Of a stretch of 64,000 nt of DNA, positions 1 to 5,099 are shown in pieces; within the stretch, counting starts at the first letter, position 1; every line of letters begins with the position of its first letter. This DNA is from Escherichia coli (GTDB taxonomy: Bacteria; Pseudomonadota; Gammaproteobacteria; Enterobacterales; Enterobacteriaceae). Under the pieces are notes generated by a model. It did no database searches and was not told where the DNA came from. It saw nothing but the letters and a program-made list of their open reading frames with translations. Made by a program: the position numbers and the translations under genes. Where the stretch lies: NCBI RefSeq assembly GCF_003334385.1, contig NZ_QOWN01000004.1; one strand, 5' to 3'.

Positions 1-408
1 CAGTGCTTTAGTCAGCGGAGGCAGAATAGTGTTGATATATTCGTCAGTGGTCTGCTTGATCTTATTAGCAATATCTTCAGCAGCACCCAGCGCATATTCA
101 AAGAAGCTAATCTGTAAACGCAGGTCATTCAGGCTTACATCGAGAGTGGAATACGTATTAGCGAACGCGTACAACGGCAGGTTCTCGTTCATTTTGCTAA
201 TTTCTTCGCACAGCTCGAGATTATATTTATCCCAGTCAAAAATAACGCCGCACAGACGCGCATTGTTTTCGATCAGTTTTAATAAGTCGTCACGGTCGTT
301 CGGGTAAACAATCTGGAAGTTCAGACGTTCAAGCGCGCGATGAAGTTCACGGATGGGTTCTTCTTTAAAATAAACCCCCATGTGATTCAATATTGCAATA
401 ACGTTCAT
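1..408 (-). CDS. cadA: lysine decarboxylase CadA, N-terminal 136 codons only (gene continues past the left edge)
   Basis: Minus-strand frame from ATG (complement of 406..408) reads MNVIAILNHMGVYFKEEPIRELHRALERLNFQIVYPNDRDDLLKLIEN... with no stop before position 1; absent from ORF track because truncated. Confidence 0.9.
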   Translation of the reverse strand, partial: MNVIAILNHMGVYFKEEPIRELHRALERLNFQIVYPNDRDDLLKLIENNARLCGVIFDWDKYNLELCEEISKMNENLPLYAFANTYSTLDVSLNDLRLQISFFEYALGAAEDIANKIKQTTDEYINTILPPLTKAL

Positions 409-487
409 AGTCATATCTCCAGGTAAAAAAGGCCCCTCCCAACACATGGGACAAAATGAAAGGAGGAGCCTCGGAAAATACTTTTAA

Positions 488-1822
488 TTAATGTGCGTTA
501 GACGCGGTGTGGTTATCCATTGAGTGGCTCTGGCGCTCGTGCATTTTGCGAGCGTAGAACATCAGGATAATCAGGCTGACGATGAAGGTACCTGCCAGCT
601 CGAAGGAGCTTGCGCCCATCAGCGCGATGAAGCAGAACACGCAACCCAGTACAGAGCAGATCAGGCTGACAAAGTTGCGGATGTTAACGCCTTCAAAACG
701 AATCAGGTCAACGCAAGAGTAGAAATACGGCAGCATAGTCAGCAGTACTGCGATACCGGTCAGTTCACCGAACAGGTCAGATGCTTTACCACCGGCAGAG
801 TTCATCAGAGTGATAAGGATCATCAGGGCAGTCATTTTCACTGCAGCCAGCAGCAGACCTTTTTTCGGAATACCGTTGCTGTCGACTTCACCATAAACTT
901 TCGGGAAGTTACCGTCGTTAGCGGCACGTACACCTGCCTGGCCTACCAACATCATCCAGGAGCCCAGAGAAGTCAGGCACGCAAAGGCGGTGAATGCAGA
1001 AACCAGCGGCGCAGCCCAGTTACCGAGGATAGTTGAAGCACTGATTGCAAACGGAGCACCGGAAGCCGCCATTACAGAAGACGGATACATACCGGAAAGC
1101 ACCTGAGTCGCAGCGATGTAAACAATACCTGCTAAACCAGTACCCAGCATGGTTGCCAGCGGAACGGTACGTTTCGGGTTTTTAACCATACCAGTACTTA
1201 CAGCTGCGGATTCAACACCCACGAAGGCCCACAGGCAGAGCAGAATACTTTTAATGATCGCATGACCATCAGTGGTATCCGCAGTATTCCAGTTAGCTGC
1301 ATAAGTTGCCGCATCAAACCAATGCCAGCCAACAATAGCAGTCATCACCACAGGAATAAGAACCAGCACCAGACCAATAGTGGTTAAACGGCTTACCCAA
1401 GTACCGCCGAGCATATTTACAAAGGTAAATACCCAGACGATAGCAATACAGGCGATACCCGCCGGAACAGGATCATTTAATACTGGGAAGAAGGTGGAAA
1501 GATAAGATACAGCGGTAATACCAATCGCCAGGTTACCAATCCAGTTAGCATGGTAATAAAGAACACCTGTCTGAAAACCAAATGCAGGGGAAATTTCTCC
1601 GGCATAAGCAATTGGGCCACCTTGTTGCGGGTTTTTTGTTGCCAGTCGGGCATATACATACGCCAGCGACATTGCACCAATAATAGAGATAATCCAACCC
1701 CAGATAGCAATACCACCGATACTTGCTAGGTTCGCAGGTAATAATGCAATACCGCTCCCCATCATATTACCGGCAACAACACCGGTACAGGCAAATAGCC
1801 CGATCTTCTTGGCAGAACTCAT
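488..1822 (-). CDS. cadB: lysine:cadaverine antiporter (APC family)
   Basis: ORF-track 444 aa polytopic membrane protein; sequence and length recognised as CadB; sits directly upstream of cadA on the same strand. Confidence 0.95.
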   Translation of the reverse strand: MSSAKKIGLFACTGVVAGNMMGSGIALLPANLASIGGIAIWGWIISIIGAMSLAYVYARLATKNPQQGGPIAYAGEISPAFGFQTGVLYYHANWIGNLAIGITAVSYLSTFFPVLNDPVPAGIACIAIVWVFTFVNMLGGTWVSRLTTIGLVLVLIPVVMTAIVGWHWFDAATYAANWNTADTTDGHAIIKSILLCLWAFVGVESAAVSTGMVKNPKRTVPLATMLGTGLAGIVYIAATQVLSGMYPSSVMAASGAPFAISASTILGNWAAPLVSAFTAFACLTSLGSWMMLVGQAGVRAANDGNFPKVYGEVDSNGIPKKGLLLAAVKMTALMILITLMNSAGGKASDLFGELTGIAVLLTMLPYFYSCVDLIRFEGVNIRNFVSLICSVLGCVFCFIALMGASSFELAGTFIVSLIILMFYARKMHERQSHSMDNHTASNAH

Positions 1823-2186
1823 GCTCTTCTCCTAATTTCATTTTTGAATTTGGAGTCCGGGTCATGATGTATAACTATTTCCTGACCAGACCAAACTGGC
1901 GATAAGATTACTCACGAAAAAAGGATTAATCCTAAAGATTAGGTGAAATAACACAAAAGTTTCTGTAAGTGAGAACTTGAGGTTTTTTATTAACACATCA
2001 GGATCGCAAGTTGATATCATGAAAAGATAAACATTTAATGTTTACAATGGATTGCGTGACATTCTCTGGTTAAATTTATGTAATAAAAATTATGCGGCAA
2101 ATAAATTGCCGCAACATATTATACCAACAGGAACATACAAAAACTCAACAACAAATATTTCCGAGCATAAATCAACCCGGAGTTAC
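1823..2186 (-). promoter_or_regulatory. AT-rich cadBA promoter/control region between cadC and cadB; contains a GC hairpin (gcggcaaataaattgccgc) consistent with a cadC terminator
   Basis: Strongly AT-rich 364-bp intergenic region; position relative to cadC/cadB; CadC dependence is established knowledge, binding sites not mapped here. Confidence 0.5.
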
Positions 2187-3725
2187 TTATTCTGAAGCAA
2201 GAAATTTGTCGAGATAAGGTACAACATAAGGAACAGAAGTCTGGAATATACCATTTTCAATCCAGTAAAGGGTGTTTGCCCCTGGGCGTAAATTAAAGGC
2301 GGTGAGATATGCATCAGCTGCTTCCCGGCTCATCCCCTTCATTTCATAAACCTTGCCAAGCAACACATAATTTAGCCAGGACATTTCAAGATCAATGCCA
2401 GTATTTATCGCCTGGTAAGACTCATCTGTTTTACCTTTTACCAGAGCACTGACCGCTTTTATTTGATATATAATGGACAGGTTGTTCAATTCCGGCAGTG
2501 TAACAATGTTATCTATTTCTGTGTTCAGTGCTGCTAATTGTTTTTCATCTAAAGGATGTTGAGAATGGCGCACGATATCAACTAATGCTTTTTCTGCTCT
2601 CGCGTAGGTAAATTCTGGGGATGATTGAACAATCTCACCTAATAATTCACTGGCACGGTTCAATGATTTATCATCGCCATGCAGTAAATAATCATGTGCC
2701 TGATAAAAATTAGTTAATAACGCACCACGATGCGGCAAAATTTTCTGGAGCGTCTCCTGCATTCGTTGTGGCCACGGTTGGTTTAACGCTTTTGATAAAC
2801 TCTCCAGTAAATCATTTTGAATCGCCAGCTGATTACCGTTAGTGATGACATAACGTTTATCCAGCATGGTTGAACCATCTGCATTGTCTACCAATTTTAT
2901 CGACATAAAGCATTGTTGAGCACGGTATTGGCGCTGATTAACAAACGCAATAGATAATGTTTTACCGGAACTGCTCGGTTCATCAATGTTGTAGTTGATT
3001 TTGTCATGCACCATAAAGGTGGAGAAGGTGTTAAGTGATGTCGCCACCAAATCACCCACGCCTATCGCGTAAGAGAGCTGATACGGGGAACTCCAGCTGT
3101 TACAACTTTTATTTACCATATTAATGTCAATATCGCGTGGATTGAGCAAAATACGCGATTTGCTCATAGGAAGACGTGTATCAAGACTTGAAAACGCTAC
3201 CAGTGCTACACAGATACCTAACGACAACAGGAAAAAAAACCATACCCAAAAGGTAGTGAATCGTTTGCTTTTAACTGGGGATTGTTCAGGTGGCGTTGCG
3301 GTGTTTTGAATGTTAAGACTGTGGGAGGGAGAATCTGTGGCAGGAACCGCCTCTGGTATAGGGGGAGGCGAAGATAGCATTATTTCCTCTCCCTCTTCTT
3401 CGCTGTACCAGATAACCGGCACCATTAATTTATAGCCGCGCTTTGGTACAGTAGCGATATAGACAGGACTATCTTCATCATTATCTTTTAATGACTTACG
3501 TAGTTCTGAGATACTCTGCGTCACAACGTGATTGGTGACAATACTTCTCTTCCAGACATTATCGATAAGTTCATCCCTGCTAAGTACTTCGCCACTGTGT
3601 TGAGCAAAGAAAACCAGAAGATCGATTAATCTCGGCTCAAGGGTAAGTTGACGCCCATTGCGGCTAATTTGGTTTATGGACGGAGTAACAAGCCATTCGC
3701 CAACGCGAACTACAGGTTGTTGCAT
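2187..3725 (-). CDS. cadC: membrane-integrated transcriptional activator of the cad operon (ToxR-like)
   Basis: ORF-track 512 aa; N-terminal winged-helix region, single TM segment (FWVWFFFLLSLGICVALVAF), periplasmic sensor domain; length matches CadC. Confidence 0.95.
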   Translation of the reverse strand: MQQPVVRVGEWLVTPSINQISRNGRQLTLEPRLIDLLVFFAQHSGEVLSRDELIDNVWKRSIVTNHVVTQSISELRKSLKDNDEDSPVYIATVPKRGYKLMVPVIWYSEEEGEEIMLSSPPPIPEAVPATDSPSHSLNIQNTATPPEQSPVKSKRFTTFWVWFFFLLSLGICVALVAFSSLDTRLPMSKSRILLNPRDIDINMVNKSCNSWSSPYQLSYAIGVGDLVATSLNTFSTFMVHDKINYNIDEPSSSGKTLSIAFVNQRQYRAQQCFMSIKLVDNADGSTMLDKRYVITNGNQLAIQNDLLESLSKALNQPWPQRMQETLQKILPHRGALLTNFYQAHDYLLHGDDKSLNRASELLGEIVQSSPEFTYARAEKALVDIVRHSQHPLDEKQLAALNTEIDNIVTLPELNNLSIIYQIKAVSALVKGKTDESYQAINTGIDLEMSWLNYVLLGKVYEMKGMSREAADAYLTAFNLRPGANTLYWIENGIFQTSVPYVVPYLDKFLASE

Positions 3726-4300
3726 AATAGAAACTCATTCGAAAAGGGAATGATGCAATGATAATTGCCACAACCTATTTTTACCATCTATAGATGGGTT
3801 TATTTACATATTATTGGTGAATGCAAGACGTTATTTTTACCAGCCATAAACTTCTTGATTACATAGTATTACGAAAGGATTTTACTGAGAACCAGAAGTA
3901 ATATTCCTTACCATCAAAATTCATCATCTTTGCCAAAGAAAAATGTTCAGAAAATAATCCATGGAAAATTGTCCGGAGCACTTACTATTTTAATGGATTG
4001 TTAGTCTTTGCATGAGCAAGCGAACTGATACATTTCTCTTTGTTCTCATTCAGAAAATCTCATCAGTCGCCGTTCAGACCGGTGTTGTGCTTTATGGATG
4101 CGTTACGCTCCTGATGACGTCATTTGACGTTCAACAGCATCACGGGGCCGCACGACATTTCACGTCAGTTAGTGCTATAGCTCAGGAACAAATTTTCCCG
4201 AATTGGGATATGCCCGCAAATTGCTGGTGATGTGGGGAGAATCTGGTTGAGTTCGGTAGAATTGATTTGGAGGCAGAACGCTTAAATCGTGGCGTCCTGA

Positions 4301-4332
4301 AACGAAAAACGGACCTCCGTGGAGGTCCGTTT
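4301..4332 (-). terminator. rho-independent terminator downstream of pheU
   Basis: Hairpin aacggacctcc/ggaggtccgtt followed on the minus strand by a U-rich run (plus-strand aacgaaaaac). Confidence 0.65.
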
Positions 4333-4341
4333 ATATGAATT

Positions 4342-4417
4342 TGGTGCCCGGACTCGGAATCGAACCAAGGACACGGGGATTTTCAATCCCCTGCTCTACC
4401 GACTGAGCTATCCGGGC
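4342..4417 (-). tRNA. pheU: tRNA-Phe (GAA)
   Basis: Reverse complement is GCCCGGATAGCTCAGTCGGTAGAGCAGGGGATTGAAAATCCCCGTGTCCTTGGTTCGATTCCGAGTCCGGGCACCA, 76 nt with encoded CCA. Confidence 0.95.
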
Positions 4418-4523
4418 AACGGGGCGCATTAAACCGTAATCTGCACATCTCGTCAACCTAATTTCAGTAAAAGCGATTCAACTGCTTAAGATTGCGGCAA
4501 ATCGCTTCTTTTCTGTGTTTCTG

Positions 4524-5099
4524 TCAGGTCAATGCACCACCCTGGCGGCAGCGGGCGAAGCGCAGGATATCTTCCGCCAGCCGATGTGCAGTGTCGACAT
4601 CCGCCTGGCTACGATTCACCAGCATTCGGCTTAAACAGCCTTCCAGCACCAGTTCCATCTGCTTTGCTACCATCGCCGGATCGTCAACTTCCAGTGTGGT
4701 TAACAGTTCGTGGGTGAAATCGTAGGCCGCGCTTTTTTGCTGATCGGCCAGTTGATGAATAGGGTGGCCAGGATCGGGATAAAACGTACAGGCAGCGATA
4801 AATAGACAGCCCGGATAGCGGTTGTTTTTAACGCACTCCGATAACGCCTGATAACGTGCCAGCAGCTTTTGTTCGGCGGTTTGCGTTTCGTCCAGCATCA
4901 GCTGACGACGCCAGACATCTATCTGTTGGCTAAGATAACGCAGCGCATCGTAGAGGATTGCCTCTTTGTCTGGCCAGAAGCGGCGTAGCTCGTCCAGTGG
5001 ATAATCCACACGTTCAGCAACCATCTCCAGCGTGGTGTTGGCAATCCCTTGTAATTCTAATAATTTCAGGGCTTCTCCCAGTACATCTTCACGTTGCAC
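4524..5099 (-). CDS. yjdC: TetR-family transcriptional regulator; likely GTG start, the ORF-track ORF extends to 5123
   Basis: ORF-track 199 aa; N-terminal HTH ([31 protein letters not shown]); GTG at complement of 5097..5099 gives the 191-aa length I recall for YjdC. Confidence 0.8.

Follow-up and report, generated by a model that had tools for sequence, protein, structure and literature searches.

The 616 bp that separate the tRNA-Phe gene pheU from cadC in Escherichia coli K-12 are best read as a currently unoccupied but scarred island-integration site, and we put the probability of this reading at roughly 0.9. A P4-type island with a tyrosine recombinase would have integrated into the pheU 3′ end in an ancestor of several Escherichia species. 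What is recognisable of it now is its tRNA-proximal end alone, i.e., a flank of 157 bp, integrase codons 1–11 and the last ~62 integrase codons. The two coding pieces are joined by an internal deletion of ~1.05 kb, after which frameshifts, stops and a start-codon mutation would have followed. The intact tRNA 3′ end would still act as an attachment site, and in the sampled cases a newer island, with an intact integrase of its own, is found between pheU and the old scar. The scar then follows a partial copy of the tRNA, 22–23 nt long, with which the newer island ends. The order of these events we infer, beside homology, deletion architecture, distribution and the arrangement found in CFT073, which are observed.

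An integrase scar beside pheU is already known, annotated as yjdQ, and is ordinary biology; no paper on yjdQ turned up in the literature searched. The small additions of the present work are an internal deletion that keeps both gene ends, an island-derived pheU flank with its putative terminator, a scar that predates E. coli, and modern islands that insert between pheU and this scar. All this matters little beyond bookkeeping. "Empty" E. coli pheU sites are not virgin, the first ~360 bp past the tRNA, terminator included, being old island DNA, and software that relies on integrase hits or flank homology to score pheU as occupied or to set island limits should allow for the scar at the distal boundary of each modern pheU island.

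Results and discussion

The pheU–cadC locus

The window, the whole stretch of 64 kb analyzed here, is E. coli K-12. It aligns with MG1655 (NC_000913.3) from record position 4358210 onward, and over its first 7.8 kb the two differ at a single base. pheU lies on the minus strand with its 3′ end facing position 4341, as placed by both ARAGORN and Rfam; at a permissive E value, Rfam reported the tRNA alone, plus a chance match to bxd_5 (E 0.53). On the other side of pheU follow dicD (yjdC) and then dsbD. An earlier note, made from the sequence, had put the distance between the pheU 3′ end and cadC at about 600 bp; up to the cadC start codon we measured 616 bp (3726..4341). That note had also seen no integrase ORF in the gap, which holds true, as no ORF exceeds 72 aa and no intact integrase is present. 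The longest ORF, 72 aa at 4012..4230 (+), is there as it described and has no family match in PHROGs or NCBIfam. The features of the region are as follows.

2187..3725, minus strand: cadC, a 512-aa ORF annotated as such, left boundary of the region
3726..3948, minus strand: AT-rich cadC upstream region by composition, ~30% GC
3949..3965, minus strand: possible last island trace past the integrase stop (16/17 match, E 0.12, not significant alone)
3982..4144, minus strand: pseudogene yjdQ (b4654) of the MG1655 annotation (record 4362191..4362353), last ~62 integrase codons
3985..4144, minus strand: RefSeq PGAP pseudogene, tyrosine-type recombinase/integrase, frameshifted, incomplete, missing N-terminus
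4059..3988, minus strand: integrase aa 397–420, then stop (tblastn)
4144..4061, minus strand: integrase aa 359–391 (tblastn)
4178..4146, minus strand: integrase aa 1–11, MALTDAKIRAA vs IALTDVKCRAA (tblastn, 8/11 identities, 18.9 bits)
4146..4178, minus strand: the corresponding integrase codons 1–11, outside the annotated yjdQ
4145..4163, minus strand: junction of the internal deletion, at which the alignment jumps from 213 to 1264 of the intact O111 locus
4012..4230, plus strand: 72-aa ORF from the ORF list, antisense to the integrase remnant
4185..4341, minus strand: integrase-upstream sequence of 157 bp, putative attL-side island end (blastn homology)
4307..4332, minus strand: terminator-like hairpin AAACGGACCTCCACGGAGGTCCGTTT with T run (terminator scan; 11-bp stem, 6 GC pairs)
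4342..4364, minus strand: 3′-terminal 23 nt of pheU, the attachment-site core, of which present-day pheU islands have a direct repeat at their distal end
4342..4417, minus strand: pheU, tRNA-Phe(GAA) (ARAGORN; Rfam tRNA, 68.3 bits; MG1655 b4134)

The single base at which these 7.8 kb depart from MG1655 is window 2329, in cadC codon 466. The window has C at this position, and MG1655, the K-12 derivative AML001_ev01 and CFT073 have T; the codon for residue 466 thereby goes from AAC (Asn) to AGC (Ser) in the window.

The integrase remnant

A short integrase pseudogene near this site in K-12, which the earlier note had mentioned, does exist: it is yjdQ (b4654), and PGAP calls a pseudogene there as well. 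As reference for tblastn and blastn we used the intact 421-aa integrase encoded just after pheU in E. coli O111:NM FWSEC0005 (locus L003, 3652..4917), which matches the NCBIfam model NF007246 "integrase domain-containing protein" with E 6.6e-73. With this O111 protein, the integrase search of the gap that the earlier note had suggested returned three collinear pieces on the minus strand, in three different frames. The two best HSPs scored 32.7 and 32.3 bits, and their sum of 65.0 compares with a maximum of 38.1 for the top-two sum, and of 23.1 for the best HSP, in 200 shuffles of the same 199 bases. On the DNA level, blastn aligned the integrase 3′ end at 69% identity over 201 bp (E 2e-24), ending exactly at the stop codon. 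The start-codon region matches the O111 locus at 20 of 23 nucleotides. The match of codons 1–11 is short and appears convincing only through this DNA match and its collinearity with the 157-bp flank. The start codon of the remnant is ATA in the window, from an ATG that is kept at this place in E. whittamii, Escherichia sp. E1V33 and SCPM-O-B-8794.

From the jump of the alignment from 213 to 1264 of the O111 locus it follows that the integrase lost ~1.05 kb through an internal deletion, which removes roughly codons 12 to 358 (~346 codons) of the 421. Since codons 1–11 and the 157-bp upstream sequence are both kept, the gene was gutted internally and not truncated. yjdQ (b4654) of MG1655 is the same object; its annotation covers the C-terminal fragment only and leaves out both codons 1–11 (4146..4178) and the upstream sequence (4185..4341). 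The label "missing N-terminus" is thus slightly inaccurate.

Three-frame translations of yjdQ showed two reading frames, in-frame stops and small deletions, one of which removes the block that aligns to the integrase AAYIH motif. With ~346 codons gone and the rest in three frames with stops, no intact reading frame over the catalytic domain is left, and the remnant is an inert pseudogene that cannot have catalytic activity. P4 integrases are tyrosine recombinases that integrate into tRNA 3′ ends; the remnant would resemble this family by the general mechanism of integration and through the NF007246 match of the reference integrase, but differs in being catalytically dead.

Profile libraries gave no further handle on the remnant. 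The frame-corrected remnant peptide of 54 aa had no integrase match in PHROGs and NCBIfam, and the best profile hits for this peptide and for the 72-aa ORF were to unrelated families at E 0.04–0.06. The remnant peptide is too short and too decayed for a profile match. As the libraries miss the lone remnant, its identification as integrase rests on close relatives and on DNA homology. Past the integrase stop, the match at 3949..3965 pairs with sequence 30 bp past the O111 integrase stop.

The sequence following pheU

Read from the tRNA, positions 4341..4185 align with the 169 bp between pheU and the O111 integrase start in 140 of 169 columns, with one 12-bp gap (E 2e-49). This corresponds to 83% identity over the 169 aligned columns and to ~89% without the gap; against other Escherichia species including E. 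albertii, the 157-bp flank is 84–91% identical. An integrase is hence found beside the tRNA 3′ end and co-oriented with it, as a remnant only: pheU, flank, integrase start and integrase end all lie on the minus strand.

The flank contains the terminator-like hairpin, which is identical to that found after pheU in O111 and CFT073, there upstream of an intact integrase. We surveyed the first 70 nt past the tRNA at 80 dicD–pheU loci of Enterobacteriaceae, one genome per species. At some 50 other loci pheU is followed by another hairpin, GAACCCAGCC..GGCTGGGTTTTTGC, of the form GAACCC(A/G)(G)CC...GG(C)(T/G)GGGTTTTTGC; it occurs in Citrobacter, Enterobacter, Salmonella diarizonae, Kosakonia, Klebsiella, Raoultella and other genera. 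The hairpin type of the window, AACGGACCTCCACGGAGGTCCGTT, was found in three settings. The first are the Escherichia loci. In the second, an integrase 74–76% identical to that of O111 follows (Leclercia, L052; Trabulsiella, L064; Klebsiella spallanzanii, L081), and the hairpin also precedes an integrase fragment in Raoultella planticola (L084; 60% over 55 aa). The third is a single Citrobacter amalonaticus locus (L012, S646) with no detectable integrase. The native flank of island-free relatives (GAACCCAGCC..GGCTGGGTTTTTGC) is not present at the pheU of this window.

The hairpin type thus travels with the integrase lineage across genera, and the ~50 integrase-less loci differ, which argues for an island origin of the flank. 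Hairpin and 157-bp flank after pheU are therefore island-derived, unlike the flank in most other genera, and from its structure the hairpin is the putative present terminator of pheU. When an element enters the 3′ end of a tRNA gene, the tRNA is restored and a direct repeat is left behind. All sequence past the crossover is then predicted to stem from the element, so that ~360 of the 616 bp are scar, from 4341 to 3982 and, on the weak 16/17 match, perhaps as far as 3949.

In many non-Escherichia genera, a native terminator and then CCGGACTCTCCATCGAAC are found 45–60 nt after pheU (L049, L053, L062, L063, L073–L082 and others). CCGGACTCTCCATCGAAC is similar to the tRNA-Phe 3′ end in reverse complement (CCGGACTCGGAATCGAAC). 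Furthermore, in Klebsiella michiganensis (L077), an ORF translation points to a second copy of this 3′ end, in direct orientation, ~150 nt downstream. The CCGGACTCTCCATCGAAC copies and the L077 repeat may be old attachment-site debris.

State of the attachment site

The attachment core at 4342..4364 is intact in the window. A distal repeat was sought with 16- to 45-mers on both strands. In the 64-kb window, no copy of the tRNA 3′ end was found above chance at up to 3 mismatches in 25; ungapped scans of 1..4341 with 16- to 30-mers on both strands gave nothing above shuffle maxima, and the 44 kb farther on the cad side of the K-12 record held no such repeat above chance either. The native pheU terminator flank of other genera was not found in the K-12 cad–phn region. 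Throughout the sequence searched (window, 1..4341, the 44 kb and the cad–phn region), neither a distal repeat nor a native flank hence marks the other end of the old island. The earlier note, which had seen no obvious direct repeat of the tRNA 3′ end, was right in this over all of the window and the 44 kb beyond. It had further called the site unoccupied, which stands insofar as no present-day island, intact integrase or repeat is found; that the site is simply empty does not stand, as the integrase match shows former occupation.

Distribution and age of the scar

Of 5426 complete E. coli genomes, 5219 have at least 80% of 3726..4341 at a single location, for the most part with 95–100% identity. 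The region is thus present in at least 96% of these genomes and does not show the variable presence expected of a present-day island. The arrangement of pheU, ~620–640 bp and cadC also occurs in E. whittamii (84.7% identity) and in Escherichia sp. E1V33 (91.2%). It is also found in a divergent genome labelled E. coli, SCPM-O-B-8794, which is 76% identical in the gap and 91% in CadC. The deletion junction AAATGTCG..TGCGGCCCCGTGATGCTGTTGAACGT is common to E. whittamii, Escherichia sp. E1V33 and SCPM-O-B-8794 (11 extra bases). The shared junction implies that the deletion predates the split of these lineages, and the scar is hence older than E. coli. In E. albertii, the 157-bp flank (84%) is followed by an integrase of which more of the N-terminus is kept, up to the contig end.

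Other decay states of this element were seen at two loci. In Escherichia sp. MOD1-EC7003 (L008, 10759..11502), 49 bp of island flank are joined to integrase aa 64–215 at 90% identity; the other is the locus of Citrobacter amalonaticus S646 (L012).

The cadC-proximal sequence and a possible cargo of the old island

The ~220 bp next to cadC (3726..3948) show no homology to the integrase region of the island. They are 86–95% identical in three further Escherichia lineages, with almost no indels, and the remnant has many. Indels crowded in the remnant and rare next to cadC would fit neutral decay beside constrained sequence. The segment is presumed to be the own upstream region of cadC, with cadC promoter and 5′ UTR, the promoter role following from position alone; a consensus promoter scan gave no sigma-70 match for cadC on the minus strand.

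The scar might also be the head of an old pheU island whose cargo survives as cadCBA, perhaps together with dtpC, lysU and ghoST. We consider this doubtful. Order and orientation would fit, with the tRNA, the integrase and then cadC 256 bp after the integrase stop. With regard to base composition, cadC has 42% GC and the gap ~30–40%, compared with 51% for the window; ghoST has 35% and dtpC 51%, but cadB and cadA, at 48–49%, are near average. cadC was found past pheU in none of the 45 non-Escherichia species for which at least 5 kb could be read there, and Enterobacter and Kosakonia run directly from pheU to yjdF and proP (L030, L038, L053, L056). However, what follows pheU varies within every genus, and the position of the block next to the scar may therefore be coincidence. 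"E. coli E69" (L009) has neither the scar nor the cad–dtpC–lysU–ghoST block, yet the cad block is fixed in E. coli. Moreover, neither a distal repeat nor a native flank turned up in the 44 kb, and an integrase lost through internal deletion is uninformative on cargo. If it were true that the cad operon is the cargo of the old island, this would be a modestly interesting domestication of an acid-resistance module. It is equally tentative that cadCBA (lysine decarboxylase), a core acid-resistance trait of E. coli, came on a P4-type element and was fixed once the internal deletion had destroyed the integrase.

In E. coli, 17 kb lie between pheU and yjdF (cadCBA, dtpC, lysU, ghoST, yjdIJ, dcuSR, dcuB, fumB), and the E. 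coli interval from yjdF to proP (L085) holds a further block of melBAR, adiAYC and eptA–basRS. The whole pheU–proP interval looks like a long-term insertion zone. At the E69 locus (L009, 10759..13918; CP089930.1, "E. coli strain E69", 4.44 Mb), dicD and pheU have the same sequence as in K-12, and the two genomes part 2 nt beyond the tRNA. The terminator hairpin of E69 is of the native type, and yjdJ–yjdI follow 2.8 kb downstream at only 88% nucleotide identity. Either the block was deleted or replaced in E69, or this lineage is an unusual one.

The 72-aa reading frame

The ORF at 4012..4230 lies on the strand opposite the integrase remnant and most likely arose by chance. That it is a real small gene on decayed integrase DNA seems very unlikely to us. 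Only K-12 and Escherichia sp. E1V33 have it intact, E1V33 with many replacements; in E. whittamii and SCPM-O-B-8794 it is broken by frameshifts or stops. A promoter-like site lies just upstream (3930..3958, +), but such sites occur in the region at shuffle expectation (2 found, 1.9 expected). Besides the unrelated families at E 0.04–0.06, the ORF has no PHROG or NCBIfam match below E 0.1, and it is unannotated in MG1655 and by PGAP. We reject 4012..4230 as a gene on conservation.

Present-day islands at pheU

The pheU site, between yjdC and cadC, is a textbook island hotspot. When the 5426 complete E. coli genomes were searched with window 3300..4800, the locus was contiguous, as in the window, in 3685 and interrupted in the rest (~1741, about a third). 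In an evenly spaced listing of 60 rows, the match breaks off within the tRNA 3′ end in 16 (window 4362..4391), 15 of them at 4362–4364 and one at 4391. The attachment site should hence remain usable, given its intact core here and the islands in other strains.

CFT073 carries both the scar and a modern island. Its pheU (4650825..4650900) is followed by an intact 420-aa integrase, 98.6% identical to that of O111, and by an island of ~52 kb with pgt, pap (papG-II) and ireA. At the distal junction lies TTCGATTCCGAGTCCGG-CACCA, a 22-nt copy of the tRNA 3′ end with one C missing. Directly after this repeat follows the scar, and then cadC; the cadC-side match runs to window 4364. Within CFT073, the old scar flank is 83.7% identical to the flank of the new island, and the remnant is 70% identical (DNA) to the new integrase. 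Scar and intact modern integrase in a single genome, at 83.7% and 70% identity, argue for the scar as a separate, older event. The comparison with island-bearing strains that the earlier note had in mind thus yields a common set of elements: the intact islands of CFT073 and O111 share flank, hairpin and attachment core with the window.

In work on papGII islands, the pheU insertion site is delimited by yjdC and cadC (PMC7686366), and the same interval has been used as the pheU insertion site for LEE (bioRxiv 10.1101/549998). The integrases of present-day pheU/pheV islands (PAI-CFT073-pheU, the O111 island, papGII islands, LEE) have the same position and orientation relative to tRNA-Phe as the remnant, and these islands and the scar have a common upstream flank, hairpin and 22–23-nt attachment core. 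In contrast, the present-day integrases are intact (420–421 aa) and head islands of tens of kb, whereas here ~346 codons are deleted, the remainder has only ~70% DNA identity to present-day pheU integrases, and no cargo is assignable.

One might read the remnant as a recent loss, in the K-12 lineage, of a present-day pheU pathogenicity island of CFT073 or LEE type, as the integrase-upstream flank is ~84–89% identical to that of modern pheU islands. We regard this as extremely unlikely. CFT073 has the scar in addition to an intact modern island and integrase, with the scar outside the direct repeat of that island; the remnant is only 69–70% identical to the modern integrase on the DNA level; and the deletion junction is found in other Escherichia species as well, with the region in at least 96% of E. 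coli genomes. The coexistence in CFT073, the low identity and the shared junction thus contradict a recent loss. That the site is a virgin, never-occupied attB, with 3726..4341 as ordinary native intergenic DNA and the integrase similarity as chance or annotation noise, could draw on the lack of an ORF, direct repeat or profile-HMM match, but it is virtually untenable and can be ruled out, given tblastn and blastn matches far above shuffled controls and collinear from flank and start codon to 3′ end and stop codon, and an island-type flank unlike that after pheU in ~50 other species.

At many of the dicD–pheU loci (e.g., L013, L022, L023, L025, L027, L029, L035, L039, L050), the draft-genome contig stops no more than a few hundred bases past pheU. 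These contig ends fit repeated or island DNA that breaks assemblies past pheU.
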